A stretch of DNA of 64,000 bases from the NCBI GenBank assembly GCA_965222225.1, contig CBDCTK010000002.1, forward strand, positions 2,208,001-2,272,000. The letters are read 5' to 3'. The notes below the pieces were generated by a model. It was not told the origin of the DNA. It did no database searches and saw nothing but the letters and a program-made list of their open reading frames with translations. Below, piece after piece: positions 17,025-62,944 of the stretch. The DNA comes from Candidatus Poribacteria bacterium (GTDB lineage Bacteria; Poribacteria; WGA-4E; JAJDTR01). The translations under genes and the position numbers were made by a program. Positions within the stretch are counted from its first letter, which is position 1. Every line of letters starts with the position of its first letter.

Positions 17025-17190
17025 GTAGTAGCACAATTCACTGCAAGTTTTTTGTAGGAGCGAGTTTTACTCTCGACCGGGAGAGGCATTTCTATAGGAA
17101 CTCTATCGCCTTCGCTATTCGCTCAGTTGATCCCTCACTATCCGGTCGCTTGATCCTATTCGGTCGGTCGCTCTCCTATTGATTATCGCG
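17025..17190 (-). repeat. Two GTAG REP-like hairpins plus the longest GATCAA-unit cassette (17097-17190, minus strand)
   Basis: GTAGTAGCACAATT at 17025, GTAGGAGCGAG at 17054; reverse complement CGCGATAATCAATAGGAGAGC-GACCGACCGAATAG-GATCAAGCGACCGGATAG-TGAGG-GATCAACTGAGCGAATAG-CGAAGGCGATAGAGTTCC; between convergent genes. Confidence 0.8.
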
Positions 17191-17196
17191 TATAAC

Positions 17197-18306
17197 TCAG
17201 TTCGTTGCTCCGATGGCGCGATTAAACGCAGGGACAACCTCCTTGGCAAACAACTCGAAACTCCTATCCCAGCGCTCGCGATTGTCCCAGTCATGGGCGA
17301 CCGCGACCAGCGTACCGAAAGCGCCAATTTGCTCGCGAAGATTCAATAGTTGCTGCGTCACCGAGTCCGGATCGCCCGCGATAATCACCTCGTCCATGAA
17401 GTAATCCAAATTGCATTCGTCGTCGGTCATCTCCTCGTTGCGTTTCCAGATGAGGAGACCTGTTGGCGCGTAGCGGAGCGTAAAGTCGCGTATGTACTGT
17501 ATGCACTTGCCGAGTGAGTTCTCTCGGGCAATCTGACGCGCCTCTTTCGTCGAATCCGCCACGAAGATGTTTCGCGCCACACACCAATCGCTTGGATCCG
17601 CCTCGCGACCCGCCGCCGCCGCCCCCTCGGCATATCCCTGCCACTGATTCGCGAGAACATCGGGATGATTCATGTGATGACTTATCGGGCGAAAGCCGCG
17701 CGCCGCGGCTGCCTGAAGTCCTCGCGAGGCGGGAGACATGCACGGTACAAAAATTGGTGGATGCGGCTGTTGAAGGGGTTTATGCAAAATCCCCATCCCG
17801 AACTCCGAATCGACAGTTTTTTGAGAGACCGACCAGAAATCCCCCTTAATATTGTAGGGCGGGTCGCCGGACCAGATGTCCAGAATCATGTTGATAGATT
17901 CGGAGATACGGGGACCTATCTCGCTGGGATCTATACCGTAGAGTTCGTTGTCGGTTGGAATCGCGCCTGGCCCCAGGCAGACGTTCAATCGCCCGTGCGA
18001 GAAGTGATCCAGAAACGCAAGCCGGCTGGCAACATGCACCGGGTGGTGATACTGCAAGCAAACAGGAGCCGCGCCTATACGTATTTTGTCGGTTAAGCCG
18101 AGCACTTTTCCGAGGAAAATCTCTGGCATCACGATGTTCTCAATAGTTGAAGTATGGTGTTCGCCGACCCAGAAATCAGTGAATCCGAGGTCGTTACATT
18201 GGACGGCAAATTCCAAATCTTCATCGAAACATTGGGCTAACGGCTTTGCCGGATCGTGAACCGGCATCAAAAACATGCTGTATTTAACTGGGGACACTGT
18301 TTGCAT
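17197..18306 (-). CDS. LLM-class flavin-dependent monooxygenase
   Basis: WVGEHH, HPVHVA, LDHFSHGRL, KPLQQPHPPI, IAGDPDSV. Confidence 0.92.
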   Translation of the reverse strand: MQTVSPVKYSMFLMPVHDPAKPLAQCFDEDLEFAVQCNDLGFTDFWVGEHHTSTIENIVMPEIFLGKVLGLTDKIRIGAAPVCLQYHHPVHVASRLAFLDHFSHGRLNVCLGPGAIPTDNELYGIDPSEIGPRISESINMILDIWSGDPPYNIKGDFWSVSQKTVDSEFGMGILHKPLQQPHPPIFVPCMSPASRGLQAAAARGFRPISHHMNHPDVLANQWQGYAEGAAAAGREADPSDWCVARNIFVADSTKEARQIARENSLGKCIQYIRDFTLRYAPTGLLIWKRNEEMTDDECNLDYFMDEVIIAGDPDSVTQQLLNLREQIGAFGTLVAVAHDWDNRERWDRSFELFAKEVVPAFNRAIGATN

Positions 18307-18393
18307 CAGATGGAATTCCTCCGTATTTTATCCGTAGACCTGTTTCTCGTTTAGCGATTCAACAACCAACAATCCAAAGATGATATGATGGGT

Positions 18394-18422
18394 AGTCTAC
18401 CCTTTTCTCCATCATCGGTCAA
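18394..18422 (-). promoter_or_regulatory. sigma70-type promoter for the LLM gene
   Basis: TTGACC-N17-TAGACT on the minus strand. Confidence 0.5.
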
Positions 18423-18474
18423 GAGCTATAGACCCCATTTGAATAATCGTCGCGAACTCCAGTTTCTAAAGGCT

Positions 18475-18495
18475 GGTGCGCAGTGCGCACCCTAC
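18475..18495 (-). repeat. REP-like palindrome GTAGGGTGCGCACTGCGCACC
   Basis: Identical to copies at 33452 and 39844. Confidence 0.85.
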
Positions 18496-18546
18496 GAGAA
18501 ATTGTATTACTTGTTTGACGATTATTGGTCAAGAGCCTTATTCAAT

Positions 18547-18932
18547 TCATCCATATTCGGACTTTAACTCGTTCAAGAGGCGAGTTATGCCGTTCCTGAT
18601 AATCTGCTCGCACGATGCTCGCGGGCGCAAATACTTCCATACGCCCTGCGGATGCGCCCATGCCTCATAGCCGCCGTTCGATCCCAACTCGTAGTCCTTC
18701 TTTTGCGGCGATATACAGTGCGCGTCCGTTCGTGTAGCCGTAGACCACGGTATGCTTGAGAGGCGTGTGTTATCCTCTGCCAATACGAGAGCGCGTGCAT
18801 ACAGATCGTCGCGGACTTCTTAGCCTTTCGTCGCAGGCGTGGTGATGGTTTCGGCAGCGCCCACCATTAGCGCAATACCGCTAGTCGCGCTCGTATTAGC
18901 AAGCCATAGGACAAGACCAAAGAAATCTTCAT
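18547..18932 (-). pseudogene. Internally deleted remnant of a neutral/alkaline ceramidase-like protein
   Basis: Segments in different frames: LMVGAAETITTP, EVRDDLYARALVLAEDNTRL joined to KHTVVYGYTNGRALYI...GGYEAW; stop and frameshifts. Confidence 0.6.
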
Positions 18933-19003
18933 CTCGTTTAACCCCTGATGAAGTTCGGAGAAATAAAGCAACCGCCCTCTCCATGTGTACGTGACCTATC
19001 TTC

Positions 19004-40981: not shown

Positions 40982-41151
40982 GTAGTAGCACAATTTGTTG
41001 CGCGTCTTCTGTAGGAGCGATCAAGCGAACACTCAACTGAGTGGATAATGACCGCGATTAGGAGAGCGATCCCATAGAGATCGCTCTCCTAATCGCGAGC
41101 TCCTTCTGTTGCGACAAAATCCCTGAATCGCGAGCTGGAGCTCGCTCCTAC
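40982..41151. repeat. REP cluster (inverted REP pair) with a cassette containing a perfect 19-bp palindrome
   Basis: GTAGTAGCACAATT 40982; GTAGGAGC 41011 ... GCTCCTAC 41151; arms 41053-41071 and 41079-41097. Confidence 0.85.
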
Positions 41152-45594: not shown

Positions 45595-45630
45595 GTATTT
45601 ACCCTTGAGCCGAAAGGGGAAACTGGGACG

Positions 45631-45972
45631 ATGGAAGAATGGGTGAAAATTATCGCCCCCATGGTCGCGCCGCTAGTCGCGATTGCCGCACTCTGGTGGA
45701 AAATCACAACCTCGGTAGCAACAAAGGAGGATGTGAACAGGATTGCTGAGTACCTCCAAAAGCAGATAAATCAGTCGGTTGAATTAACGCTTGATTTGAC
45801 TCGAGATATTAGAGAGAACATGCGGCAGATGCGGTCTGAGATGAAGACGTTTCGTGCGGACATTAGCAAGCTCAATGATAAAATCGATACTAATTCCCAA
45901 ACCTTGCATACCAAAATAGACAGCCTAGCGAACGAGTTGCGCACGGAAATTAGAGAGTGGACGCGGTGTTGA
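45631..45972 (+). CDS. Membrane-anchored coiled-coil protein
   Basis: N-terminal TM, ATKEDV motif, heptad-rich tail. Confidence 0.7.
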   Translation: MEEWVKIIAPMVAPLVAIAALWWKITTSVATKEDVNRIAEYLQKQINQSVELTLDLTRDIRENMRQMRSEMKTFRADISKLNDKIDTNSQTLHTKIDSLANELRTEIREWTRC

Positions 45973-46000
45973 TAGTTGAATGGGCGCTTTATGCTACGGG

Positions 46001-46128
46001 TCGCGATTCGGAGAAGATTCCTATCGATCAAAGAAGCGGATAGATCAACTGACCGGATAGGGAGGGCGATAGAGATCCCAATGCGATAGAAAATCCTACT
46101 CGCTATTCGCTCGCTTGATCGCTCCTAC
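46001..46128. repeat. REP split by a cassette that itself contains an inverted cassette
   Basis: TCGCGATTCGGAGA...GCTCCTAC REP halves; outer cassette on minus 46015-46120; inner cassette on plus 46026-46096. Confidence 0.8.
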
Positions 46129-46169
46129 GGAGAGGGTATTCCAAATTCAGATTATTGGAGGATGCGTCA

Positions 46170-47006
46170 ATGCCGAAAGTATTGACTGAAGACGCCATCG
46201 GACAATACCATCGGGAGGGTTACTTCTTCCCAGTCAGAATCTTGGACGATGAGCAGGTTGCAGCCAATCGGAGGCGACTAGAGGAATTTGAATCGCGTCA
46301 GGGAAAACCCGTTGAGGGCGCGCAGCGGAGCAAATCTCATCTCCTATTCAAATGGGTTGATGACCTGATGCGGGACTCAACGTTGCTGGATGCCGTCGAA
46401 GACTTGATTGGTAGGGATATCCTGTGCTGGAACACGATATTCTGGATTAAGGAGGCGGGAAGTCAAAGTTTCGTCTCTTGGCATCAGGACCTGCACTACT
46501 GGGGGCTTGATACCAACGACTTGGTCAGCGTATGGTTAGCGCTTTCGCCGGCGACGCTTGAGAGCGGATGTATGCGCGTTTTGCCGGACAGTCACAAGGG
46601 GGATTTGCTGCCTCACAACGACGAATACCAGCAGGACAACCTCTTGACCCGCGGGCAGGAAATTGCGGTGAAGGTTGATGAGACGAAGACTGTCGCTATG
46701 CCGCTAGAACCCGGCGAGATTTCCTTGCACAATGTGCGCTTGGCACACGCCTCCGGTCCCAACTGTTCCAACGACCGTCGCATCGGTATTTCATTGCACT
46801 ACATGCCCACCCACACGAAACAGACGGTTGGAGAATGGGATACGGCGGCGCTCGTCCGCGGCGAGGATCGATTCGGTCACTTCACCATTACGCCGCGTCC
46901 AGCCAAGGACTTCGATCCCTCAGCGGTGTTGTTTCACGAGAAGGCGACCAACGCCACTCGCAAGATTTTGTATAAAGACGCCCAAGAGGATCGGCACACG
47001 ATATAA
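46170..47006 (+). CDS. PhyH-family dioxygenase
   Basis: SWHQD, ESGCMRVLPDSH, AHASGPN.S.DRR; GGAGG RBS. Confidence 0.92.
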   Translation: MPKVLTEDAIGQYHREGYFFPVRILDDEQVAANRRRLEEFESRQGKPVEGAQRSKSHLLFKWVDDLMRDSTLLDAVEDLIGRDILCWNTIFWIKEAGSQSFVSWHQDLHYWGLDTNDLVSVWLALSPATLESGCMRVLPDSHKGDLLPHNDEYQQDNLLTRGQEIAVKVDETKTVAMPLEPGEISLHNVRLAHASGPNCSNDRRIGISLHYMPTHTKQTVGEWDTAALVRGEDRFGHFTITPRPAKDFDPSAVLFHEKATNATRKILYKDAQEDRHTI

Positions 47007-47079
47007 CCGAGCCGCAGGTTGTTGGCAGACAATACGCCACAGTTCGGAAACCGCTAGTGCTTCGTGGTAGTAGCTTGGA

Positions 47080-47172
47080 GTTTGGTTTCGCTGGGATCTC
47101 TATTGCACTAACGCTTCTATCGCATTCGCTACTCGCTCATTTGATTCTATTCAGTCGTTCAACCCAACCTAC
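47080..47172 (-). repeat. GTAGGTTGGGTTGA-type REP with cassette
   Basis: Reverse complement GTAGGTTGGGTTGAAC[GACTGAATAG-AATCAAATGAGCGAGTAG-CGAATGCGATAGAAGCG-TTAGTGCAATAGAGATCCC]AGCGAAACCAAAC. Confidence 0.8.
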
Positions 47173-47203
47173 AGGTTAAAATCAGGAACGGCTAGAATTT
47201 ACC

Positions 47204-48430
47204 TCATCCATTCCAACTTTGGATAAAGTCCTCTACCTCAAATCCCCCTGGCATCTCCGTCAATTGATACCTCATCACTCTTTCCCTTCTATCGACGACG
47301 CACCGCTCAATCTCAGCTTCTATTTTCTCAAACAGGATTGAAAAACGCTCCCGGAGCTGATTCGCTTCCTCCTCGGAAAAACGCTGAGCAAAATCCTTAA
47401 TCGCGTGGAAACCGATCCGGTGCTCCCCTGTCGCAACAATCTGTTCCTCCAGTGAAAGATTGACGTTCTCCCGAGACTTCAACGTGCGCAGCTTGTCAAC
47501 CCACTTCGATAGGAACACGACGCACACCATCCGCCCTTCATCCCCCGGATGCAACGTTTCTAGTCCATTCATGAAAGCCGCTCTATCCCCCTTCAGGACG
47601 GCGCGAAGGGTAGACTCCACCACATCGCACTGTTCTTGGTACAACCGAGTGAACTCTCCAAACCGGTCGCGTATTCTTCGCGGGAGAGAATTGGTGAATT
47701 CCAATTCCCAGCCATGTGCATTAACAACCGGGAATACCGGACCGCCCAGAGCGCGATAGCCGAGATGAACCGTGCGCCGCAACTTCGTACTGTAGTTGCT
47801 GCCCCAGTGCAACATGAAGTGGGTATAGACAATCCCATCCCCCGCTTTAAGCTCGATTGGCGTGCCTCCCGGCATCGGCTGCTGCGGGTTCGTTAGCAGG
47901 TGTTGGTGTTCCTCCTCGGTATTTGGGCGGGAGTGGCTCCCTGGAACCACCCAGAATACACTGTCATCGTACAGCGGGATATTCCACTGAACATAACCGG
48001 GCGCGTTAGCCAGCATATCCATTTGCATACCGTTCAAGGGTGCTTGCGCAACGGGATTAACATCACGATGCCAACTGGCAGGCCCATGGTCTCGCGGGGG
48101 ACTGCACATCAGCGCCATCAATGTGACTGCGGCGTCTGACGAACGCATCAGTTGTTGGCTCACGCCTAGTGTGTTCTCATGCAGGCAAAACTCCACCGTG
48201 TCCGCGGTCTTTTCGTTAACGACCTCGTTGAAAAATACCCTCGGTTGGGCGGCAGTTTCCCAAGTCCCGCCCGGCGGGTCGTCCGGTTCGCGCTCACGCC
48301 GCCACACCGCCTTCTGTCGATCGACGAGGACTTCAAAACTCGTCCGGAGCGCATCCAATTGATCTGGCGGGATGACCTGCGGCAGTATGATGAAACCGTC
48401 ATCCAATAATTGCTGTGGGTTGACTTTCAT
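47204..48430 (-). CDS. PhyH-family dioxygenase with C-terminal helical extension
   Basis: LDDGFIIL, WHRD, WVVPGSH, LHWGSNYS..LRR. Confidence 0.88.
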   Translation of the reverse strand: MKVNPQQLLDDGFIILPQVIPPDQLDALRTSFEVLVDRQKAVWRREREPDDPPGGTWETAAQPRVFFNEVVNEKTADTVEFCLHENTLGVSQQLMRSSDAAVTLMALMCSPPRDHGPASWHRDVNPVAQAPLNGMQMDMLANAPGYVQWNIPLYDDSVFWVVPGSHSRPNTEEEHQHLLTNPQQPMPGGTPIELKAGDGIVYTHFMLHWGSNYSTKLRRTVHLGYRALGGPVFPVVNAHGWELEFTNSLPRRIRDRFGEFTRLYQEQCDVVESTLRAVLKGDRAAFMNGLETLHPGDEGRMVCVVFLSKWVDKLRTLKSRENVNLSLEEQIVATGEHRIGFHAIKDFAQRFSEEEANQLRERFSILFEKIEAEIERCVVDRRERVMRYQLTEMPGGFEVEDFIQSWNG

Positions 48431-49536: not shown

Positions 49537-49569
49537 AAGCGATTTTCAAAGTCAAGGATGTGCGAAGGA

Positions 49570-50575: not shown

Positions 50576-50632
50576 GTAGGCGGCGGCCAAACGAGTGAAT
50601 AGCCAGTGCGATAGAGGTCCCCTTGCCCCACC
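50576..50632 (+). repeat. REP-like hairpin with a degenerate single-unit cassette
   Basis: GTAGGCGGC[GGCCAAACGAGTGAATAG-CCAGTGCGATAGAGGTCCC]CTTGCCCCACC. Confidence 0.7.
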
Positions 50633-51954: not shown

Positions 51955-52027
51955 AGACCGAGCAAGAAGCCGTGCGTTTTGAGTTTCCAGAATGCGCAAG
52001 TCCCATGTAACCTAAACTTGCTAGCTT

Positions 52028-53563
52028 TCAAAGATACCGTTTAATGAGATCGGCAATGTCATCATATCCCTTTTTCTCCGCCCAAGCGAGGGGCGTAGCC
52101 CACTCGGCGCCGGCAAGCGTGGAATCAGCGCCGCGCTCAAGATAGAGACGCGCGAGGTCGTACTTTCCCCAACGAACCGCCCAACCCAGGGGCGAAGATT
52201 GCAGCAGGTCGTCAATCACATTCAGGTCGGCGCCATAGTCGAGAAGGATGCTTCCGAAGGTAACGCGTTCAGGTTCGGTCATGATGGGTTCTCCCCATAC
52301 AACGCCGCACGCCGCCAGATCGTGAGCAAGCCGGTATCCGAAACGCCCTACCAGATTGGGGCTGGCGCCGTAATCCAAGATCATCCGAAAGATCTCGGGA
52401 TAGACAGTGCGGTCAAAGTCGCGAAATTTGCGGTGAGGGTTGGTGCGCCAAAGGCGAAGCGGTTGTTCAAGCAGATAGAACCAACGATTGTCATCCGGTT
52501 CCCAATCAAGTTGACGCAAACACATCCCCACGATATTCGGATCGCCCCCGCAGCCTGCCGCCCACAGAAGTTTTTCCGCAAGGGACGGGTCGTTGTGGAG
52601 GGCAACCGCAGCGGCGGAAGTTTCACCTTGGAGTCCGGCAGTTACCGGATCCAATACGCCACCGTATCTAAACAGCAATCCCTTCATTTTTTCATCGCGA
52701 TTGTTATACGCGTTGCCCACGGGATTGCCGCTCGCATAGATGCTGGCGTTGGGATCGGCGCCGCATTCAAGTAGGAGTTCGGCAATCTGAAGAAGACCAT
52801 CTCGTTCAGTGTCGGAGGATTGAAAGCGGTGGGAATCAAATGCGGCATACGCGCGAAGGTAGTCGAAATCACCGAGCGCAACCGCAGATTCAAGCGATTG
52901 TTCGCATCCCGCCTGAAGAAGGATGCCAGCGCAAATCAAGCAACCTTCGTTGAGAGGTCTGTTTCGACCGCGTACATTGTGGACAGCGCCGTCGAGAGGC
53001 GATTGCCCCTCGGGTGTGAGATGGGCAATATCGGCATTGCGTGCGAGTAACTCCTGAACAAGTTGGTAACGGCCGTGAGACGCCGCCGCATAAATGACAC
53101 TGCCGCCATTCCGATGACAGGCGTCGATCAATTCGGGCTGCCGACTGAGGATTGCTAGGGCATCCTCACTTCGCCCCTCTCGGACGGCTTCAAACAGCGC
53201 GTCATTTTCTTCGGTGATGCTGATGTTTTTGCAAGCGGCGAGTTTGCGTTTTTCGTCCTCCTCCCGCAAGATGTGGACAATCTCACCCATGCCCCGTTCA
53301 CGGGCGATGGTAAGTGCGCCGGTGGCATCGCGGTGGGGATAGATGCCGTGCGTGTGATTCGCGCCCGCTTCCATCAGGATGCGCACGGCGTCGGAGTGTT
53401 GATTCATGACCGCGTAGTGAATGGCTCGATGTTCATCGTCCTCCGCCATGTGTACGTTAATCAGATCGGGTTGCAGATCGAGAATCTGTTGAATTTTGGA
53501 GACATCGCCATCCCTCGCCGCTTCGCATAGGTCGGCGACCCTATAGGTTTCATTCGTCTCCAT
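52028..53563 (-). CDS. Cytoplasmic ankyrin-repeat protein
   Basis: Multiple ANK repeats (AIHYAV, SPLDGA, SPLGWA, TPLAWA). Confidence 0.88.
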   Translation of the reverse strand: METNETYRVADLCEAARDGDVSKIQQILDLQPDLINVHMAEDDEHRAIHYAVMNQHSDAVRILMEAGANHTHGIYPHRDATGALTIARERGMGEIVHILREEDEKRKLAACKNISITEENDALFEAVREGRSEDALAILSRQPELIDACHRNGGSVIYAAASHGRYQLVQELLARNADIAHLTPEGQSPLDGAVHNVRGRNRPLNEGCLICAGILLQAGCEQSLESAVALGDFDYLRAYAAFDSHRFQSSDTERDGLLQIAELLLECGADPNASIYASGNPVGNAYNNRDEKMKGLLFRYGGVLDPVTAGLQGETSAAAVALHNDPSLAEKLLWAAGCGGDPNIVGMCLRQLDWEPDDNRWFYLLEQPLRLWRTNPHRKFRDFDRTVYPEIFRMILDYGASPNLVGRFGYRLAHDLAACGVVWGEPIMTEPERVTFGSILLDYGADLNVIDDLLQSSPLGWAVRWGKYDLARLYLERGADSTLAGAEWATPLAWAEKKGYDDIADLIKRYL

Positions 53564-53635
53564 GCTTGTTCCTCCGCTACTGCTCGCCTTGAAAAATCCA
53601 AATCAGTTTTGTACACAATCGAGTTTAAGGCGCAT

Positions 53636-54031
53636 CTACTTTTGTTTAGCCCCTCTCAACTCAAAAGCCTTAACTATGATGTACGCAATTAAGGCAAATA
53701 TGAAAATCACTAAGTACATCCAAGCAATTGCTTGAAGGGTTTCAATGATGGTTCGATATATCTCCAGTGTCCATCGTTCGTTATTCAACTCTAAAACCCG
53801 ATCGTCTTTGGTCGGTGCGCTTATATATCGTTCTAGCTGATGTACCCTCACACCACCCGAAATACCGACTACATAGGTGGCAAATTTCACATACTTATTC
53901 CACGCGCTGCTGATTTCCTCCTGAATGATGCGCCTAAAAATGGTGGATATTGGCTTATTAAACATCTTCACAACGCAAAATGAGACAAAAGCCGCTAAAA
54001 CGAATGTGACTAACAGTAATGAAAAAAACAT
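53636..54031 (-). CDS. Hypothetical three-TM membrane protein
   Basis: GGAGG RBS, three hydrophobic helices, 131 aa. Confidence 0.75.
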   Translation of the reverse strand: MFFSLLLVTFVLAAFVSFCVVKMFNKPISTIFRRIIQEEISSAWNKYVKFATYVVGISGGVRVHQLERYISAPTKDDRVLELNNERWTLEIYRTIIETLQAIAWMYLVIFIFALIAYIIVKAFELRGAKQK

Positions 54032-54052
54032 ATATCCTCCACTTTTCCCGGA

Positions 54053-55222
54053 TTAGAACGAGATGCGTATCAATTCCAGAGAGAAAATCTCATCGGTCTC
54101 AGGCTGAACGCTGTCCGTAGAAGCGAACTCTTCGCCCCAGCCCCGTGTAAAACGGTGTGTGTACCAGATTCCCGCGGCAGATCCAACGACATTCGCCACG
54201 ACATAAAATTTCGTGTTCTCCCAACTGACATCAGCAAGGAGGAGGACTCCGCTGCCGGAGAGCGCACCGATGACCGCACCGAGAATTATCAATCTAGCAC
54301 GGCCTGTCGTGTACTCATCTTTGCCAGTCAATTGATAGCCGAGATATGTTCCTAGCGGCAAACCCAGTATGGAGGCGAACACATAGGCGCGCGGATGCTC
54401 AACTGTTTCAATCTGTCCCGAATCAATTGTGATGTCGCCCAAGCCGGCCAGGTGGGTCATTCCGGCTGCATAAGCACTGCCGACGACGCCTCCCAGAGAG
54501 ATGAGGTGCGCCCGACCTTGTGAAATGGATTTGTCTCGAATCAGTCTCGATGTCGCCCAGACGCCCGCTGGCACACCGACCATTGCGGACGCAGTGTAGA
54601 TTTTGGCTTGCGTCCAATTTTCAAGATTTTCAATGTCGAGAAGATACGGAATGGCGATGCCGTACAACCCTCCGACCAATCCGCCTTTGGTAATGAGATC
54701 GGTTTCGCCTTTCTCAAACCATCTGTGATCGCTGAGTGAGTGAGCGATTAGTCCGCTCAAAGGTGTGGCAAGCATCGCGCTAGCCAAATACGCTTTGTCA
54801 TTCTCGGATTCGAAAAAAATCGGAATGCCGAATCCATAAAGTGTGCCCGCGTAACTCCCCCATTGAATGAGTTTGGAACGGCCGGCGCCGAGCCGATAAT
54901 TTTCGGTGGCTTTGAGCGCGCCCCAAAACGTCCCGCCGCCCATCAGCAGTTCGAGTCCGATTATTTGCCGCGCGGATTCCATCTCTAGCATACGAGCCGT
55001 CCCCGGCCCATACAACAGAAGCCCATACAGCGTTGCATCAAACACCATTCGTTTCCTGCCCTCCTGTTGTTCCTCTAAGCTGACCTGTTCGTCAACGCGG
55101 TTTTCGAGATGACCCTCCGGTACAAGGTTGAGAAAGACGAAAATCGTGAAGCAACAAAGAACGGCAATAATATTGGGCGCCCTATTTCTGCTATTACTCG
55201 GCATGCTGGTAGGATTTTTCAT
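54053..55222 (-). CDS. Gly-rich membrane protein with ~4 internal helical-hairpin repeats
   Basis: Repeated GR(A/S).LI..GG..G..YG units. Confidence 0.7.
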   Translation of the reverse strand: MKNPTSMPSNSRNRAPNIIAVLCCFTIFVFLNLVPEGHLENRVDEQVSLEEQQEGRKRMVFDATLYGLLLYGPGTARMLEMESARQIIGLELLMGGGTFWGALKATENYRLGAGRSKLIQWGSYAGTLYGFGIPIFFESENDKAYLASAMLATPLSGLIAHSLSDHRWFEKGETDLITKGGLVGGLYGIAIPYLLDIENLENWTQAKIYTASAMVGVPAGVWATSRLIRDKSISQGRAHLISLGGVVGSAYAAGMTHLAGLGDITIDSGQIETVEHPRAYVFASILGLPLGTYLGYQLTGKDEYTTGRARLIILGAVIGALSGSGVLLLADVSWENTKFYVVANVVGSAAGIWYTHRFTRGWGEEFASTDSVQPETDEIFSLELIRISF

Positions 55223-55767
55223 AATGTCCTATATGATTAACGTGATTCTGATGCAACTGTGCAATTTCTGACGCAGGTCGTGAAAGTTCGTCTCAGTCTT
55301 TTCAGCGAGATTACTCATGTCCGCATGGAACCCTTGAGAATTAGCATCTCCGAGTGTTTGCTCGTCAGCATATTGTCCCGGAACGACTAGTTGAGTCTTT
55401 AACGCGCGCCTCAAGTTTGTCTTCGCTCTGATTTAATCTCCGCCGGCTAAACCCCAAAGGCACAACGTAGAATATCGCAAATGCTCCCCACAGCTTGAAT
55501 TCATCAAGTAAACCTTCAATGAATCAGTATCTCCTTCTGCGATGCCACATTATCGGAGTTTGCGACAAATCTGACTGCACAAGTGCAACTATACCACATT
55601 CACATCGCTTATTCAACCCGCACCGGTCACATTCCCAGGGCAATCGCCTCTGATTTTTGGGGTGTGATCGCGTCCTCTGCCTCACTCTCGACTAGATGTG
55701 CTATGAATGGGGATGCAAAGGGAAGATCGGAAATCGGGGATTTGATGATTGTCGATTTCACAAGAAA

Positions 55768-55852
55768 TCGCGACCGGGAGATCGCTCCTACAGTAGGTTT
55801 GTAGTAGCGATCCTCGATCATTAAATCGAAGATGGAATCCCTTCATTGCGCG
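55768..55852. repeat. Empty REP (55768-55791) next to a REP with a divergent GATC...ATCCC insert (55809-55841)
   Basis: TCGCGACCGGGAGATCGCTCCTAC; GTAGTAGC[GATCCTCGATCATTAAATCGAAGATGGAATCCC]TTCATTGCGCG. Confidence 0.7.
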
Positions 55853-55912
55853 TTTGGCTGGCCGTTCAACTGCGTGAGTCCTAAGACTAAACAGTTACAC
55901 CACCGATTTCAC

Positions 55913-57616
55913 TTATCGGGCGATCAGCATCGTCACCCGATGCGGCTCGGTTCCCGGACTCCGTTTCGGGGCTCCGTGAGCATCTCGTAGAGTAAACGGG
56001 TGATGAATGAGGATGTCCTGCACCCCGTCCTTGTTGAGGTCCACCAGCCAGGTGTATTCCCCGTCGTTGGGTAGGGCAACTGCCACCTTTTGAGGCTGCC
56101 GGGCGAATAGCTTTGGCCCCGGCACGCCGACATAGACACACAATTGCTTATGTGTCCACTCGATAAGCAGGTCTGAGCGTCCGTTGCCGGTCACATCCCC
56201 CATGAGCAAAGTCCTGTTGAATGCGCGCAGGTAACTCTTTTGAGTGTTCCGGCTCTCGTGCGTGCCTCCTCGAAGCACTATGTCCAGCGGCACCCACCCC
56301 GGCTCGCGATGGCTGGGCGCACCGTCCAACGCGATTCTGCGGGTGATGTTGGGATTGTCGCCGTAGAAGCCCCCTTCCATGTAGTAGAACTCAAGATCCA
56401 ACCAGATGTCGTCGCCCATAAACCCCTTGAGTCTCTTCCAGAGACTGCTCTTGAGGAAATCGAGACCGATGGTTGTGAGCATCACGTCGACCCGGCCGTC
56501 GCGATCGAAATCGTGCCGGTACATCCCGAGTTGGACGCTGTCGTCCGACCGGAACGCGGCGTTGACTGCCGGCGCGAACTCGGTGCCACCATCGGGTATT
56601 GGCGTGCCGAAATGCACTTCGTAGGCGGAACGCTTACTGGACATGTTCCTACCCTCTAGCGAGAAAACCACGAGATCGGCGACACCATCGTCGTTCAGGT
56701 CGGTTAACGAGTGCAGTACCTTCCCCAGCATGTCTCCGGTGGCGAGCGAAGAGAACTCGTCGGAGTCGAATGCCACATTGGTCGTGAAGCTCTCTGCCAC
56801 TGGAGAAAACAGCCCGTGCTTGTCCTGGTGATGAACCAAGAAGTGGTCCTCGTTCCAGAACACCAGGTCGTTGCGGCCGTCTCGGTTGTAGTCTATCTCG
56901 TGGACGCGGCTCTGACTCCAAGGGTTGTAACGATAGCCGTCGGCTCCGTAAATCCTACCCATCTCGGCGGGGGCACCGACCTTCACCGGATCGGCGAACG
57001 CGCCATCACCCACCTGGATGAACACCCAGAAGCCCGCGACATCCGGTACCACTAGGTCGTCGCGGTCGTCGCCGTTGAGGTCCCGAGTAATATCTACATG
57101 GGGGATTTCGCCGCTGCGAGGCGGGTTGAAGTTGGAAGTAACCTCCACCAGCGCACGCTCCGTCGCCGTTTCGGGGTCGAACCAGTTTAGGCGGCCGGGC
57201 TCGTAGGTAATCAACCGGTCGCGGCCACCGATGTTTGCGACGTCGACGAACAACACTTTGGGACGCAGCGTTGTGTCAAGGTACGTCTCCCAGGCGCCGT
57301 CGTCGAACGCGTAGATACGCAAGCGACGGTCGTCGTTGCCGTTGATGTTCACTACGGCAAGTTCTGCCATGGCGCCTCCGAGAAGAAACCCCGTTAATAC
57401 GGTCTGGCGTTTCGCGGATCCGATGACCACGTCGTACTGATTGAAAGTGAATTCCGCGGCGGCCTGATCGTCACCGGCGTATGCCATGCATTCCGATAGG
57501 AACGCTCCCAAAACCAGTATGGGGAACAGGCTTCGTGGATAATGCCTCGTGCAGATGGTTGCCAAGCTGGATTTTGCGGAAATCCGGCGTTTGTGGGATT
57601 GGTTTCGCTCTTTCAA
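55913..57616 (-). CDS. FG-GAP/VCBS-repeat (integrin-alpha-like) exported protein
   Basis: Six DxNxDGxxD-type loops (DLNGDDRDD, DYNRDGRND, DLNDDGVAD, DFDRDGRVD, DVTGNGRSD, DLNKDGVQD); start codon uncertain. Confidence 0.85.
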   Translation of the reverse strand: MKERNQSHKRRISAKSSLATICTRHYPRSLFPILVLGAFLSECMAYAGDDQAAAEFTFNQYDVVIGSAKRQTVLTGFLLGGAMAELAVVNINGNDDRRLRIYAFDDGAWETYLDTTLRPKVLFVDVANIGGRDRLITYEPGRLNWFDPETATERALVEVTSNFNPPRSGEIPHVDITRDLNGDDRDDLVVPDVAGFWVFIQVGDGAFADPVKVGAPAEMGRIYGADGYRYNPWSQSRVHEIDYNRDGRNDLVFWNEDHFLVHHQDKHGLFSPVAESFTTNVAFDSDEFSSLATGDMLGKVLHSLTDLNDDGVADLVVFSLEGRNMSSKRSAYEVHFGTPIPDGGTEFAPAVNAAFRSDDSVQLGMYRHDFDRDGRVDVMLTTIGLDFLKSSLWKRLKGFMGDDIWLDLEFYYMEGGFYGDNPNITRRIALDGAPSHREPGWVPLDIVLRGGTHESRNTQKSYLRAFNRTLLMGDVTGNGRSDLLIEWTHKQLCVYVGVPGPKLFARQPQKVAVALPNDGEYTWLVDLNKDGVQDILIHHPFTLRDAHGAPKRSPGTEPHRVTMLIAR

Positions 57617-57651
57617 TTCTGTTGTTATAAAATGTAACTCTGCTTTGCGGC

Positions 57652-57720
57652 GATCAACCGACCGAATAGGATCAAATGAGCGAATAGCGAATGCGATAGA
57701 GATCCCTCTTCATTGCCCGT
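57652..57720 (+). repeat. Two-unit cassette followed by a REP right arm
   Basis: GATCAACCGACCGAATAG-GATCAAATGAGCGAATAG-CGAATGCGATAGAGATCCC-TCTTCATTGCCCGT. Confidence 0.85.
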
Positions 57721-57763
57721 CTAATGACTTCAGGGTTGTTACTCACCACTAAACACTTATAAT

Positions 57764-58552
57764 TTACGATTCCCAGATAAAAACCTGTTTCTCGTAGATA
57801 ATTTCAAATCCGTTGCGCTCCAGATTCCCCAGCGATGTTTTAAGCATGGTGAGGGTTTGACTGCACGCGACTTGGCATCCGAGTTCAGCGGCTCGATTCA
57901 AGCGTGCCTTGATGAGCACATTTTGCCCGCCTTTTCCTCTGTGTTCTTCAGCCGTTGCTGCCGAACAAAGGCAGGCGAAACTGTCGTGTGTCCCCAGTAT
58001 TGCGGCACTGACAGGAGTACGATCTTCATACGCCAGAAAGTGCTCAAACCCGGGCTGATCAACGCCGTCAAAGAAAAATGAACAACCCCAAGGACTGTAG
58101 ATATGGGTAATCGCATCGGCGTGGTTTTCGACCTCCCGCCGAGAGACACGCTCCACTCTGAGATGGGTTTCGTGTGGTGTTACTTTTTCAACGGGACGAA
58201 TTAGCGTAGGGTACTGTGTCCCCTGAAACGGCTTAAGACCGTTGTCTAGCAGCCACTTGACGATTTCTTCTTGCTGGGGATTCGGACTAAGCCAGAAGAA
58301 GAATCGCTCAACCTGTGCCCCTTTCAATGTGTTCAGAACCTTTAAGAAATCGGTCTGAGACACTGTTGTCCCGCAACCGAAATAAAGGGCGGCGTTTCTG
58401 TTGGCTGATGGATACGGCGAGGACGCCGAAGGTGGATCTATCGTGATGATAGCATCCCCAATATTTTCGTACCTGTGTGTGCCGCCCTTCGAACAACTGA
58501 ATTCTTTCTGCTCAAGGACTTTGAGATGTTTGGCGATTTCATAAGGTATCAT
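57764..58552 (-). CDS. GNAT-family acetyltransferase
   Basis: AATAEEHRGKGGQ..LI.ARL, S..NLERNGF. Confidence 0.85.
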   Translation of the reverse strand: MIPYEIAKHLKVLEQKEFSCSKGGTHRYENIGDAIITIDPPSASSPYPSANRNAALYFGCGTTVSQTDFLKVLNTLKGAQVERFFFWLSPNPQQEEIVKWLLDNGLKPFQGTQYPTLIRPVEKVTPHETHLRVERVSRREVENHADAITHIYSPWGCSFFFDGVDQPGFEHFLAYEDRTPVSAAILGTHDSFACLCSAATAEEHRGKGGQNVLIKARLNRAAELGCQVACSQTLTMLKTSLGNLERNGFEIIYEKQVFIWES

Positions 58553-58553
58553 T

Positions 58554-58936
58554 TCATTTTTCAATCGGGCTTTCAAAAGTCAAGCGGTAACCGTCGGGAT
58601 CTTTGAAATAAAAGACATCCATGTCGTTGCCAACAAAGGGTACGCCTACTTGAATACCGCGTTAATTGAACTCTCGGTGCGCCGCTTTGGCATCATCACA
58701 AATGAAATATAGCGTAAGTCCACCTCAGGATTCGCGCGAGCTTCGCCCTGAGACTTCTGCAGCATCAGCGCTCTGTCGCCGTGCTGAATCCAGCACTATT
58801 GCAATTCGTCATCTTTCTCCCACTTTTCTTGCATTTCGAACCCGAGACCATCAACGTAAAATGCGACCAATCTCTCCACATCCGCAACGGCGAATAAAGG
58901 GACTGTCTGAGCAATTTTGACCCGTGATAAACTCAT
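58554..58936 (-). pseudogene. VOC/glyoxalase (bleomycin-resistance-like) protein, pseudogene
   Basis: Manual translation [33 protein letters not shown]...LQ*CW...GLTLYFICDDA...N*RG...FKDPDGYRLTFES; stops at 58796 and 58662 plus a frameshift; ATGA overlap with the uvrA stop. Confidence 0.82.
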
Positions 58937-61809
58937 GAGATTCTCCCATTTAAAAGTGGTTTCAAAAACTGTCCGGTATAAGATTGTTCAACGCTCGCGA
59001 TTGCTTCCGGCGGTCCTTTTGCAATCACATTGCCCCCGTTGTGACCGCCTTCCGGACCGAGGTCAATCACATGGTCTGCGGTTTTAATCACGTCAAGGTG
59101 GTGTTCGATGACGATGACCGTGTGGCCCGCATCGACAAGCCCGTTCAGCGCGTCGAGTAGTTTTTGGATGTCCGCCAGATGTAGTCCGGTCGTCGGTTCG
59201 TCAAGAATGTAGAGGTTATGTTTGCCGCGTTTGATTTTGCCGAATTCGGTCGCAAGCTTCACGCGCTGCGCCTCGCCGCCCGAGAGGATGGTGGCGGGAT
59301 GACCCACTTTGAGATAGCCCAGCCCGAGAGTGTTGAGCACGGACAGTTTGTGCACAATGAGCTTCTCATTCGCAAAGAATTCGACGGCGTCTTTAACCGA
59401 CATATCAAGCACGTCGGCAATGGTTTTGTCTTGATACGTGACCTCAAGGGTTTCATCATTGTAACGCGCCCCTTTGCAGGTGGGGCACGGAACTTCAACG
59501 TCGGGCATAAACGCGAGGCTTGTCTTGATTACGCCATCGCCCGCGCACTCTTCACAGCGACCCCCTTTGACGTTGAAGCTGAACCGGGAAACTGTGTAGC
59601 CGCGTTCTTTGGCTTCGGGCGTGGATGCAAAACATTTACGGATGTTGTCGTAGAAACCGATGTACGTCGCGGGATTTGAGCGCGGGGAACGCCCGATGGG
59701 AGACTGGTCGATGTTGACGACATCCCCGAAGTATTCGTGGCCGACAATGTCATCGTGATCGCCGGAAAACACCCGACTGTCGTGGTATAGGTTATAGAGT
59801 TTCTTGTAAAGTACTTCGTGAATAAGCGTGCTTTTGCCTGATCCGGACGCCCCCGTGATGCAGGTAAAGACTCCGATTGGGATCTCAACGTCAATGTCGT
59901 TGAGGTTGTTCGCACGTGCGCCTTTGATGTGCAGCGCCTTAGCGTTCTTTTTACGGCGTTGGCTCGGCACGTCAATCGTCCGTGTGCCGCCAAGGTATTG
60001 TGCGGTTGGTGATTCACGGCAGTCCAAGACCTCTTTGAGGGAACCGCTCGCGACGACGTGACCGCCGTGCACACCCGGACCTGGTCCCATCTCAATGATG
60101 TAATCAGCAGCGCGAATGGTTTCCTCATCGTGTTCGACGACGATGACGGTGTTGCCGATGTCGCGCAGGCGTTGTATGGTGTTTATCATCTTGACGTTGT
60201 CTTTGGGGTGCAAACCGATGCTAGGCTCGTCAAGCACATAGAGCATTCCCATAAGCCCAGAGCCGATCTGCGTGGAGAGCCGAATGCGCTGAGATTCACC
60301 GCCCGAAAGCGTACCCGACGGGCGATTGAGGCTGAGGTAATCGAGGCCGATACCGATAAGAAGCTCCAGGCGGGATGTGATTTCAAAGATAATCTGTGAG
60401 GCGACCTTCTCCTGTTTGTCCGGTAGTGTGAGTTTGTCCAGAAAGGATAACAGCTCCGGCAGGTGCATTTCGCCGAGGTTATGTATATTGTAATCCTCGA
60501 TAGTGACCAAAAGGCGCTGTTTTTTGAGTCGCTCACCGCCACAGTCCGGACAAAGGTTCTCAACCATCACCTTGCGCAGGTAATCCTCCATGCGTCCGTG
60601 AGCGGCACCTTGTTGTCGGTAGCGACGATAATGGCGCTCAATCTGGTTGATGACGCCATCGTAGCGAAACTCGCGTCCGATGTATCTGGCGGCGGACTTG
60701 GATTCAGGGGGCTGTTCAACGACAACCCGTTCCCCTTTTGTCCCGTACAGGAGCAAATCCTTAACCTCGTCGGACAGGTCTTTATACGGCGTGTCGAGAT
60801 CGAAATTGTATTTCTTCGACAGACTGTAGAGAATGCGTCCTCCCCATGAATTGACATTGTACTGTAGTGCCTCCTTGACAAAGGCGCCCTCGCGAAGACT
60901 GCGATCTTTGTCCGGGGCGACGAGGTCGGGATGCGCTTTGAGATAGGTGCCCAAGCCCGAGCAGGTGATGCAAGCGCCCGCGGGATCGTTGAAGGTGAAC
61001 ATGCCGTGGTGCATACGGCCCGCGACAACATGAACCGAAGAACCTCCGAGTTTATCGTAAAAGGCATCGGTGGCTTTCGCTTCTGTGGGGTCAAGCACGT
61101 GAAAACTTAAGAAACCTTCACCGATGACTTCAAGACCGTGCGTCAGCGAGGTGACAATCTGTTTGTCGAGCCCCTTGCGGATGACAAAGCGGTCAACGAT
61201 TACTTCAATGAGGTAATTCTCCCCTTCGTCAAGGTCTATTTCTTCGCTCAGGTCGTGCATCTTGTCGTCGATACACAAACGGCGGTATCCTTTGGTGCGA
61301 ATGTCGTCGAAAAGATAGGCGTAGTCTTCGCCGTAGATTTTGAGCACTGGGGCGCGGACTTCAACTTCGGTGCCTTCAGGCAGCGAAAGCATGTGTTCCA
61401 TCATCTGATGAGGCGTCCACACCTTGACCCTCTCCTTGGTTATGGGGCAGCGCGGCTGTCCAATGTTCGCAAAGAGCATCCGCAGGTAGTCGTACAGGTC
61501 CGTCATGGTGCCCACGGTCGATCTCGGGTTCTTCATGACCGTTTTCTGTTCGATTGAGATGACGGGCGAGAGACCGTTCACGAAATCGACATCAGGTTTC
61601 TTAAGCTGGGAGACAAATTGGCGGGCAAAGGTGGAGAGCGATTCCATGAAACGCCGCTGTCCTTCGGCGTACACCGTGTCGAAAGCGAGGGAGGATTTCC
61701 CTGAACCGCTTACGCCGGTGACAACAACGAGCTTGTCGCGCGGGATTTCGAGGTGGACGTTCCGCAGATTGTTCTCGCGAGCGCCTTTGACTTCGATGGT
61801 TGATCTCAT
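58933..61809 (-). CDS. uvrA: Excinuclease ABC subunit A
   Basis: [32 protein letters not shown], second [37 protein letters not shown]. Confidence 0.95.
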
Positions 61810-61833
61810 CTCTGTAAGCAGCCAACCTTTGAT

Positions 61834-62774
61834 TTACAACAGCTCAACAGCGTCTTCGTCGTAATAATACGCAGGCTCTTCAACTTTGATTCGGCTTTTC
61901 TCGGTCAAGTGGATGGAGTTTGATAGCTTTTCGATGATGTCCTGTCGAACAAGCCATTCACACGCTTCTTCAAGGCCGCCGCCCTGAATCTTTTTGCGAA
62001 AATAACCGTTGATCTCCGATAATGAGCACACCTCTGCACATTCCGTGAGATAGTCGAGCAACGGGCGAAAAAGGCGATCTGTTTTTTCTTCGAGATACCC
62101 GTTCACTTGACTCAGCACGCCTCCAACGGTCTCGCGTGTTTTTTACTGGTTAACAAAGTCGGTGTAGACAGCAGTGAAGAATTGGGGATTGTGTTTGAGG
62201 GCTTGATGGATAACCTCGCGCGCGGGCGCTTCATCTTGTGAAGGATGACTTCGACAGACGCCAACTCCCGCACAACGTACATGAGCCACAAGAAACTGTA
62301 TTCGTAGTCCTCTTTGAGGTAGAAGTATTTCTCCGCCTTGTTGAGCAACGGGATGAGATATGAGGCGTGTCTCATCAGTTGAAGCGCCTGATCGCGCGCA
62401 CCAATGTGATCGATTGTGCTATACCATTGGGTTACCGAGTCGTCTTTGGTAAATAAAAGGGTGCTCGTGGAGAAGCTGAAGTCGAGCCAGCCACCGGCAA
62501 GTTCTCCTTCGATGCTGCGCTTGAACCTGCTGCGCGGTATGCGTTGCGCATGGATGTTTACATCGTATTCGCAGAGAGTAACATCCCCTTCCTTTTGTCC
62601 GTCCTCCATTATGAGCCATAGGTCGATGTCCGAGTTTTTCCAGACTTCGTCGTAGGACAGGCTGCCAAAGAGGATTGCCGCAACTACGGTCCGGTCTTTT
62701 TCGAGTTTCTCGACGAGCGACGATAGCGCTTGCTGGTAGCGTTCTCGGGTTTCTTGGCTCGGGGAATCGGGCAT
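61834..62774 (-). pseudogene. Nucleotidyltransferase-domain protein, frameshifted
   Basis: LFGS......SDIDL Pol-beta motif; frameshift near 62236, then EAPAREVIHQAL..., in-frame TAA at 62143-62145, C-terminus in ORF 61834-62118. Confidence 0.8.
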
Positions 62775-62846
62775 AACGCACCTCACATAGCAACTCGCTG
62801 ATACCGGCTAAAGCCATCCCATCTCAATTCGGCGATTGTCGCCCCT

Positions 62847-62944
62847 GTAGGAGGATCAAGCGAGCGATTAGCGAGTGCGATAGAGATCCCAAGACGATAG
62901 TAGATCCCACAGTAACTGCGATAGAGATTCCTTCCGATTCCTGA
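62847..62944 (+). repeat. REP with a cassette and three reiterated cassette ends
   Basis: GTAGGAG[GATCAAGCGAGCGATTAG-CGAGTGCGATAGAGATCCC-AAGACGATAGTAGATCCC-ACAGTAACTGCGATAGAGATTCC]TTCCGATTCCTGAC. Confidence 0.85.

Follow-up and report, generated by a model that had tools for sequence, protein, structure and literature searches.

A 35–37-nt hairpin element dispersed in REP sequences of Candidatus Poribacteria

What is the short sequence that recurs between the genes of a 64-kb stretch of Candidatus Poribacteria DNA (hereafter, the window), and how does it come to lie in REP hairpins? The preliminary description listed eleven intergenic loci sharing one consensus and read them as a modular cassette. 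The shared motif is real. The sequence GCGATAGAGATCCC, allowing at most two mismatches, was found nine times in the window against 0.36 expected, and none of 100 shuffles reached nine; an 18-nt unit gave 13 matches against 0.32 expected. Moreover, an HMM built from the 37-nt unit returned 16 window matches at E ≤ 10 (Table 1), covering ten of the eleven loci (17097, 33496, 39888, 40115, 41019, 46015, 47093, 50585, 57652 and 62854); locus 55809 has no match. The consensus had been read correctly.

Table 1. Copies of the element in the window (window coordinates).
Feature	Position	Strand	Match
Three-copy cluster (one full, two 5' parts) in GTAGGAGCGA...TCGCTCCTAC REP	17097..17173	-	HMM 17097-17132, 17133-17155
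Third unit of the 17097 cluster	17156-17173	-	18-nt unit
Full copy in GCCCCAGAGGGG hairpin after GTAGGGTGCGCACTGCGCACC REP	33496..33532	+	HMM positions 1-37, E 1.3e-7
5' part and degenerate full copy, downstream of GTAGGGTGCGCACTGCGCACC REP	39889..39957	+	HMM 39889-39911, 39921-39957
Full copy within GGGCGAG...CTCGCCC hairpin	40116..40150	-	HMM positions 1-35, E 3.3e-6
Partial copy after GTAGGAGCGATCAAGCGAAC (stacked 5' parts)	41033..41058	+	HMM positions 3-28, E 0.0012
Doubly nested cluster	46026..46120	.	HMM matches
46026 cluster, inverted outer copy (tail before 46026)	46098-46120
46026 cluster, middle copy
46026 cluster, inner copy	46043-46079
Copy with extra 3' tail, adjoining minus-strand GTAGGTTGGGTTGAAC REP	47093..47145	-	HMM 47116-47145, 47093-47109
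Degenerate copy in GTAGGCGG...CCTTGCCCCACC REP	50588..50621	+	HMM positions 4-37, E 6.5e-6
18-nt 5' part, then full copy	57652..57706	+	HMM 57652-57669; 57670-57706, E 5e-10
Full copy 5 nt past GTAG, then two extra 3' tails	62854..62931	+	HMM 62854-62890 (E 4e-10), 62911-62931

Throughout the 5.7-Mb genome of this sponge symbiont, the same HMM gave 1118 matches at E ≤ 0.01, which cover 0.68% of the sequence. The unit of ~37 nt consists of GATCAA, a hairpin of the form xxGAyy-GRATA-zzGAww, and GCGATAGAGATCCC; the inserted length is ~35 nt, read as a 37-nt unit, so that the size is given as 35–37 nt, among the smallest seen for a mobile element. Its 30-nt conserved core is GATCAA-xxGAyy-GRATA-zzGAww-GCGATAG, and its 3' end is variable (alignment columns 33–36). 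A second genus carries a different 3' tail on the element, and its copies represent natural 'mutants'. The only symmetry of the ends is GATC, which is missing in the copies of genus g7; as GATC is not unusual in the genome (19093 observed, 22258 expected, 1224 of them within elements), a Dam/GATC idea was dropped. The element has no coding capacity, and pairs of filled and empty sites revealed neither terminal inverted repeats nor target-site duplication, which bears out the early reading as a short non-coding insert without inverted termini. There were no Rfam matches at gathering score in the window, nor at E ≤ 1 in window 45900–47300, and a literature search found no description of the element. 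Its kind is not wholly undescribed, since cyanobacterial small dispersed repeats (SDRs) share features with it.

The hairpin combines two variable 2-bp stems with a conserved tandem G.A/A.G pair and a GRATA loop; a mismatch of AA (5' arm) and GC (3' arm) below is also conserved. Among 596 distinct full copies, the four column pairs with the highest mutual information are the four stem pairs, whose cells comprise 1986 Watson-Crick, 276 G.U, 39 A.C and 83 other combinations. All four pairs are formed in 75% of 847 copies, compared with 11% after shuffling; 177 stem combinations were counted, and RNAalifold recovers the same pairs. Two families of Poribacteria share the conserved fold and loop: among 80 copies (76 distinct) taken from other assemblies, pairing is seen in 95.1% of stem cells (69.2% shuffled) and a double change in 86 cells (14.8 shuffled), values that none of 500 shuffles attained. 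G.U exceeds A.C by ~7:1, and by about 46 to 6 in other species, indicating that only one strand folds. Under RNA parameters, 5/6 top strands and 0/3 bottom strands of window copies have the covarying fold as their energy minimum, whereas with DNA parameters it is not the minimum in 5/6 copies.

Most matches (1042 of 1118, 93%) lie outside ORFs of at least 150 aa, though such ORFs span 77% of the genome. The initial impression that no copy falls in a CDS holds for the window and fails for the genome, where 44 of the 1118 lie wholly within such ORFs. No orientation bias to flanking genes was detected in co-directional intergenic regions (360 sense, 321 antisense). Of 1115 copies, 772 have their top strand on the C-rich strand; the bias is present in every context class and is shared by the host REPs. 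Orientation thus follows GC skew, which suggests a link to replication more than to transcription.

These copies are mobile. Among 80 multi-copy 30-nt cores, 66 occur in at least two unrelated flank contexts. Moreover, two orthologous sites are empty in sister species: the REP of window 17097 is empty in genomes G022 and G026, and the site of window 46043 holds in G022 the outer two copies without the inner one. The intergenic regions of G026 and G020 orthologous to window 47093 measure 66–79 nt and contain no copy. The REPs flanking the same RAYT gene also differ between species in which side is filled. That we are dealing with a mobile structured element is very probable.

The preferred place of insertion is a REP hairpin, 4–5 nt past its GTAG tag and in the orientation of this tag. 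Of 1033 5' ends of the element, 239 have a GTAG on the same strand that ends 0–10 nt upstream, most often (116 cases) at 5 nt, while an opposite-strand GTAG faces the 3' end in only 14 of 742 cases. The arrangement proposed from the window, with GTAG followed by the left arm, the element and the right arm, is therefore genome-wide. As also proposed, the hosts are several REP families, and paralogous REPs occur in both states: GTAGGGTGCGCAC is empty 78 times and filled 51 and 21 times at two sites, GTAGGAGCGATCTCC is empty 95 times and filled 34 times, and GCCCCAGNGGGGCG is empty 40 times and filled 48 times. We consider REP-directed insertion probable. Where filled and empty sites could be paired well (39 pairs), 19 pairs have exactly the 5' G in common, and net losses are most often 1–2 nt; the element goes in 3' of this G, which is itself preceded by C or G and is the only left context, with 0–2 target bases lost and none duplicated. 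The junction lies in a predicted hairpin loop, or within 3 nt of one, at 142 of 374 primary sites (38%), compared with 20–25% in three controls. Hairpin-loop targeting was dropped in view of this modest excess. The suggestion that structure rather than sequence is recognised is thus weakly favoured by the loop frequency, whereas the G and the fixed 4–5 nt from GTAG are sequence features.

The element also inserts into its own copies in both orientations. Insertion at G-containing sites of other copies generates nested 'modules', so most of the repeated 18-nt units first taken for a modular cassette represent the 5' portion of an outer copy split by an inner one. Of 111 cases that could be assessed, 63 retain the rest of the outer copy; a script found none in the other 48, though several of these visibly have one. 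The 5' part at window 57652 is a case in which no 3' remainder was found. Simple cut-and-paste nesting does not explain 5' parts that lack a remainder.

High copy number is confined to genus g1 (10/10 genomes) and genus g7 (4/4), which belong to different families of Poribacteria. These 14 carrier genomes, mostly complete, hold 110–760 exact-core copies each. No copies are found in 157 of 176 Poribacteria genomes, which carry the same kinds of REPs, nor in genus g2, the sister genus, or a further 20 genomes of family f2. A third apparent carrier, G041 (genus g9), was set aside: its 13 copies all sit on one 15.5-kb contig, probably mis-binned, since it is 92–96% identical to G000 over the first ~7 kb. 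Elsewhere, all 80 loci listed among 109 matching stretches come from Poribacteria MAGs. A cyanobacterial origin, suggested by GCGATC-like motifs, was ruled out by these matches and by the lack of enrichment of GCGATCGC; a phage vector was rejected with 0 matches in viral contigs.

The closest known repeats are the cyanobacterial SDRs and the REPs. SDR1–SDR8 of Nostoc and relatives, reportedly described by Elhai in 2008, are said to be very short dispersed intergenic repeats of 21–27 nt whose hairpins show compensatory changes and which lie nested in their own copies and within small transposons and other repeats; they reportedly carry no gene for an enzyme. To our knowledge, how repeats of 20–40 nt move has been an open question since then, and we know of no enzyme for such repeats. 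Our element resembles SDRs in being dispersed, nearly all intergenic and non-coding, in its compensatory hairpin, and in its nesting and embedding in repeats. It differs in length (35–37 vs 21–27 nt), host (Poribacteria, not cyanobacteria), target (GTAG-type REPs, not HIP1 or heptamer arrays) and in its conserved tandem G.A pair and AA/GC mismatch; its sequence is called unrelated on the strength of SDR descriptions. SDRs are found only in the Nostocaceae lineage, according to the available part of one account (PMC5861425).

With REPs and REPINs, which are mobilised by RAYTs, the element shares a short imperfect hairpin that acts on one strand, a high copy number, a position between genes and the strand bias of this genome's REPs. 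A similar AA/GC bulge is present in the REP that TnpA-REP of E. coli binds; this enzyme needs a bulge of such composition and side for binding, as stated in the accessible portion of PMC3479197. In contrast to REPs, it starts with GATCAA and has no GT[AG]G at the hairpin foot, any GTAG being that of the host REP 4–5 nt upstream; it lies inside REPs rather than beside them, forms no inverted doublets and was not seen to track a RAYT family. Insertion sequences that target REPs were reportedly treated by Tobes and Pareja in 2006. Two of them, IS1397 and ISKpn1, likewise insert specifically into REP hairpins, as far as the available parts of PMC3116915 and PMC3733652 describe them, whereas they are kb-sized and possess a transposase, inverted repeats and target duplications. 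MITEs and IS200/IS605-derived palindrome-associated elements are also non-autonomous and structured. The present element is less than half their usual size with imprecise junctions; it differs from MITEs in having neither terminal inverted repeats nor target duplication, with 0–2 nt lost instead, and from IS200/IS605 derivatives in having one hairpin rather than two subterminal ones and just a G rather than a fixed tetra- or pentanucleotide.

As to the enzyme, the prediction that none is encoded in the window was correct, and across the genome none was identified among Y1 families, reverse transcriptase and kb-sized masters. RAYT-type Y1 transposases are present, but also in element-free genomes. 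Of 176 Poribacteria genomes, 110 have an ortholog of Y1a (C2:3080255-3080728), in many cases 80–85% identical and with zero element copies in the genome, and a search at E ≤ 1e-5 gave no Y1a for two of the four g7 genomes; Y1b occurs in 3/9 other g1 and 0/4 g7 genomes, and Y1d in 7/9 and 1/4. None of the three thus has a distribution matching an element-specific enzyme. Inverted copies do lie 9–100 nt from the Y1a gene and from a Y1 remnant; at Y1a the copies sit within the gene's own GCCCC REPs, so that the hosts would probably account for the flanking. The sole PF00078 match is an AbiA-type defence reverse transcriptase (254.8 bits, PADLOC AbiA model), present in 5/9 other g1 and 1/4 g7 genomes, some with stops, and was rejected on account of its type and this distribution. 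The search for a longest 'master' copy was equally negative, as the genome shows no recurrent kb-scale spacing between the two ends of the element.

Our preferred explanation, to which we give somewhat less than an even chance as a whole, is a non-autonomous, REP-directed family of mobile hairpins moved by an HUH/ssDNA route, this route itself being proposed tentatively. The element would move as single-stranded DNA and may be handled by a Y1 HUH (RAYT/IS200-like) enzyme already engaged on REPs, which would make it a hyperparasite of the REP/RAYT system. The trans-acting enzyme would recognise the single-stranded form with the hairpin as handle, and covariation would arise because only copies keeping the fold get copied again. 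The hints are the C-rich-strand bias, the TnpA-REP-like mismatch, and the occurrence of at least one PF01797 gene in all 10 g1 and all 4 g7 genomes. E. coli TnpA-REP is moreover reported, in the part of PMC3479197 available, to transfer strands to any 3'-OH. A more specific version, in which a 35-nt ssDNA hairpin mimics the bulged REP stem and is strand-transferred by a RAYT docked on GTAG 4–5 nt away, is doubtful; if true, the element would be the first parasite of REPs, and no HUH-mobilised element would be smaller. Against an HUH route, none of the three Y1 families was seen to track the element, and its hairpin foot has no GTAG. The loss of 0–2 nt contrasts with the precise insertion of the IS200/IS605 type, and the fold is mostly not the predicted energy minimum with DNA parameters. 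The known RAYT cleavage site, as given in the same portion of PMC3479197, is CT outside the hairpin, which is not the element's junction. The 5' parts without 3' remainder also count against the preferred explanation.

If no HUH enzyme acts, a short structured RNA or DNA would enter the chromosome by a route that uses neither a canonical transposase nor a canonical reverse transcriptase. A dedicated trans-acting enzyme, neither Y1 HUH nor reverse transcriptase, encoded once per genome in both carrier genera, is another explanation, which we judge unlikely. Restriction to g1 and g7, with g2 and the other f2 genomes lacking the element, fits a separately inherited or transferred factor, and no Y1 family or reverse transcriptase shows the carrier distribution. 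However, the pattern could equally mark where the element arose, and neither a candidate nor a recurrent master was identified.

Quite unlikely is RNA-mediated spread as proposed for the SDRs, whereby a transcribed unit would fold and be copied back at REP nicks, template jumps stacking 5' parts. The excess of G.U over A.C, the fold being minimal with RNA and not with DNA parameters, and the variable 3' end favour this route, and 5' parts before a full copy without remainder, as at window 57652, fit an enzyme copying to the 5' end and then jumping. On the other hand, the only reverse transcriptase is the patchy AbiA-type one, orientation ignores genes, and its link to GC skew suggests replication. 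An RNA-library contig (depth 223) spans window 45623–46109 including the 46015 cluster, and such contigs cover some copies; this is not proof of transcription, as the library may hold DNA, repeats confound placement, and public-run contigs (Logan) break or cross-join at repeats.

Template switching or short-patch gene conversion at stalled REP hairpins would dispense with a dedicated enzyme and is very unlikely: a nascent 3' end in G would anneal beside a distant copy, copy ~35 nt and return. It would account for the one-base microhomology at the left junction (the G of 19/39 good pairs), the imprecise return with 0–2 nt lost, hairpin-rich targets, partial and stacked units, orientation along GC skew and the lack of a co-occurring enzyme. 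Yet one base is very little homology, the borders are sharp and identical across hundreds of copies and two genera, the conserved internal hairpin, loop and mismatches would not be selected, and 157 of 176 genomes with the same kinds of REPs lack the element. Finally, a motif that is not itself mobile and is selected by the host (a protein-binding site or transcript stabiliser carried by REPs) would agree with the fold and loop conserved across two families and with variants that travel with one host site, such as the 21 copies of one variant in GTAGGGTGC, but is highly improbable given the identical cores in unrelated contexts, self-insertion in both orientations, an in-frame insertion in a protein, the lack of gene-related orientation and the absence from most of the phylum.

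The element is a much cleaner system than the SDRs for the question of how 20–40 nt repeats move. Hundreds of compensatory changes in a sharply defined fold tell which bases the machinery reads, and the target rule is simple (3' of a G, 4–5 nt past GTAG). With the carrier genomes, fold, target rule, filled and empty REPs and natural 'mutants' at hand, binding, cleavage and mobilisation assays can be designed directly. The parasitic chain is usually taken to stop at REPs, yet REPs can be colonised themselves. Such elements can also add 11 in-frame residues to proteins, at least one copy being an insert of this kind in a real protein family.

The repeat described here is established as a mobile element: it is very small and structured, is non-autonomous, and has colonised both REPs (host hairpin repeats with a GTAG tag) and its own copies. 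Both motifs on which the preliminary description was based far exceed chance in the window, positions C2:2208001-2272000 of genome G000 (9 occurrences against 0.36 expected for the 14-mer, 13 against 0.32 for the 18-nt unit), and a scan of the whole G000 genome (5.70 Mb, two contigs) found the 14-mer 146 times exactly and 987 times with at most two mismatches. Alignment of 511 copies gave one unit of ~37 nt, GATCAAGCGAGCGAATAGCGAGTGCGATAGAGATCCC. A skeleton search of the genome returned 712 copies (596 distinct), and the HMM built from them gave 1118 matches at a threshold of E≤0.01 (0.68% of the genome), 824 of them with E≤1e-5. The HMM backed ten of the eleven window loci first proposed, but not the one at 55809. 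According to a crude, custom map of ORFs of at least 150 aa, which make up 77% of the genome, 1042 of the 1118 matches lie wholly outside such ORFs, 32 overlap one and 44 are inside. Using the window sequence, we found no Rfam family matching the element, nor was its description found in the literature on Poribacteria and REPs, on REPIN/RAYT and nested insertion, or among the citers of Elhai et al. 2008.

The variable dinucleotides of the unit are not free: in the layout GATCAA-x1x2-GA-y1y2-GRATA-z1z2-GA-w1w2-GCGATAG, there is pairing between y and z and between x and w. Across the 596 distinct copies, these four stem pairs comprise 1986 Watson-Crick, 276 G.U, 39 A.C and 83 other cells, and they are the top four column pairs in mutual information. 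All four are present in 75% of 847 copies, compared to an average of 11% in 200 shuffles, and the 177 different stem combinations counted show that the copies do not fall into just a few subfamilies. We repeated the test on 80 independent copies taken from other assemblies with a search pattern that puts no constraint on the paired positions. Here 95.1% of cells were paired (69.2% when shuffled) and 86 were double-change cells (14.8 when shuffled); the observed values were reached in none of 500 shuffles, and pairing collapsed in slid controls. RNAalifold predicted the identical four pairs, together with an invariant ATC/GAT stem beneath an AA/GC mismatch. That G.U outnumbers A.C 7:1 means that it is only the GATCAA strand whose fold matters. 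Under RNA parameters the covarying fold is the minimum-energy structure in five of six window copies and in none of three reverse complements, whereas under DNA parameters another structure has the minimum energy in five of six window copies. It should be noted that these DNA parameters may undervalue sheared G.A pairs.

The 18-nt units, initially taken for modules of a cassette, proved instead to be mostly copies nested within copies, with the 3' remainder of the outer copy lying beyond the inner one. Where an 18–24-nt 5' part directly abuts a full copy downstream, our script detected this remainder in 63 of 111 assessable cases, and several of the 48 cases scored as absent visibly do have it. 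A minority of 5' parts lack a remainder (e.g., window 57652), 41 further chains end without any full copy, and 211 5' parts have no same-strand copy after them. Outer copies are broken after model positions 18, 21 and 23–24, each break being preceded by G; inverted outer copies also hold inner copies, at the same GCG site.

Mobility is visible at several levels. Identical cores stand in at least two unrelated flank contexts for 66 of the 80 multi-copy 30-nt cores. Empty orthologous sites exist: the REP at window 17097, which holds three copies in G000, is conserved and empty in the sister genomes G022 and G026, and in G022 the cluster at 46015 has both outer copies but is missing the inner one (46043-46079). 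Of the REPs beside an orthologous RAYT gene, the left one is filled in G000 and G026, the right one in G025 and G022. Paralogous REP families of G000 likewise occur empty and filled (78 vs 51 and 21 at two sites; 95 vs 34; 40 vs 48). Moreover, three G000 members of a large LRR/GHL15/dockerin paralog family carry the element as an 11-residue in-frame insert (e.g., RSSEGTASAIE); in the alignment, its place is an 11-residue gap in other paralogs and in orthologs. More copies were seen deep within a TamB/AsmA-like 2418-aa ORF, a 768-aa LRR ORF and a 638-aa ORF that includes part of a DNA methylase.

To define the junctions, we compared 106 filled sites, each with an empty site resembling it; the outer flanks match well in 39 of these pairs. 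In 19 of these 39 pairs, exactly one base (G) is common to the empty site and the first base of the element. The target bases left unaccounted for number 0 in three pairs, 1 in seven, 2 in eight, 3 in one, at least 4 in 18 and are negative in two, the high values being overstated because the script halts at the first mismatch between paralogs. On these alignments, the best reading is that ~35 nt (ATCAA...GATCC) would go in on the 3' side of a G, in many cases at G^C, the next 0–2 bases being lost and none duplicated. The link to GTAG hairpins claimed for the window extends genome-wide, as a same-strand GTAG ends 0–10 nt upstream of 239 of 1033 element 5' ends (116 at 5 nt, 39 at 4 nt), compared to 23 for CTAC and 29 for GATG as control tetramers; a further 41 at 12 nt represent a second site of one REP. 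GTAG lies on the other strand in only 14 of 742, and the spacer bases between GTAG and element vary among at least 10 REP types. Predicted hairpin loops show only a modest enrichment at junctions (38% vs 20–25% in controls).

Orientation is unbiased relative to neighbouring genes (360 vs 321). A clear bias follows local GC skew, the top strand coinciding with the C-rich one in 772 of 1115 copies and 460 of 673 clusters; it is present in every context class and common to the host REPs. Over the whole contig C2 of G000, the sign of GC skew flips many times rather than delimiting two replichores, a pattern that may stem from numerous inversions or from joins made during assembly.

The element was found in few lineages. 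An exact-skeleton scan with one genome per species gave, among the matches listed (80 of 80 loci, of at least 109 stretches), Candidatus Poribacteria MAGs only. Across 176 Poribacteria genomes, matches to the 30-nt core pattern number 280–761 per genome in all ten genomes of the window's genus, 111–126 in all four of genus g7, which belongs to a different family, 13 in one genome of genus g9 and 1–4 in four others; 157 have none. All 13 g9 copies are on one contig of 15499 nt (L226), whose first ~7 kb is 92–96% identical to G000 C2:919606-928674, and which is thus probably, judging from this identity, a contig of a close G000 relative mis-binned into the MAG of another genus. The g7 copies keep the 30-nt core with a different tail, GCGATAG-TCTTCTCC, are missing the second GATC and for the most part occupy GTAGGTTGGGT...ACCCAAC repeats. 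A search of viral contigs found no copy.

As for the enzyme, G000 contains five PF01797 (Y1 HUH) matches and one PF00078 match, and no kb-sized master element was found there. The PF00078 reverse transcriptase was rejected, being AbiA-like (670 aa; scoring 254.8 bits against PADLOC's AbiA model) and patchy in occurrence; in several sister species it has internal stop codons. We tentatively favour as candidate mechanism, at somewhat less than even chances, that the element would move as single-stranded DNA via a Y1 HUH enzyme, since it is coupled to REPs and GTAG, its strand bias is replication-like, its bulged hairpin resembles that of REPs, and no usable reverse transcriptase was found. Messing et al. 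2012 (PMC3479197) report that a mismatched bulge (A12, A13 against G26, C27) interrupts the stem of the E. coli REP, that TnpA-REP no longer binds once this bulge is repaired, and that the monomeric enzyme could pass the strand it holds covalently to any 3'-OH. Similarly, the element has a nearly invariant AA (5' arm) and GC (3' arm) at the place corresponding to that bulge.

This single-stranded DNA route is weakened by imprecise junctions, the better RNA fold and a phyletic misfit. Orthologs of the best Y1 family, Y1a (157 aa in G000), occur in 110 of 176 genomes, many without the element; Y1a was not found (E≤1e-5) in two of the four g7 genomes, where other PF01797 genes exist, and the distribution of Y1b and Y1d fits no better. 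The Y1a RAYT gene is flanked phylum-wide (loci L117-L139) by inverted GCCCCAGCGGGGCGACAGGTG repeats, and the inverted GCCCCAGCGGGGCGACAGGTGTATAG repeats around it have no GTAG tag. At locus L121 the GCCCCAGCGGGGCGACAGGTGTATAG repeats beside Y1a form a tandem array of ~57-nt units. Two Y1 transposase gene remnants are each bracketed within ~10–60 nt by inverted element copies.

Positions in G000 of enzyme genes, gene remnants and in-frame element inserts
Feature	Position	Remark
Y1a gene	C2:3080255-3080728	
AbiA-type defence reverse transcriptase	C2:4499563-4501572	
Y1 gene remnant	C2:1545570-1545977	
Y1 gene remnant	C2:3560325-3560519	
In-frame insert, LRR/GHL15/dockerin family	C2:3738216-3738253	outside window
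In-frame insert, LRR/GHL15/dockerin family	C2:2910569-2910606	outside window
In-frame insert, LRR/GHL15/dockerin family	C2:3939338-3939369	outside window

A length difference in which the element is not involved was seen at window 45879-45911, where contigs from all four public runs skip 33 nt, equivalent to 11 residues in frame, inside a small ORF (45631-45972) of repetitive coiled-coil-like sequence.
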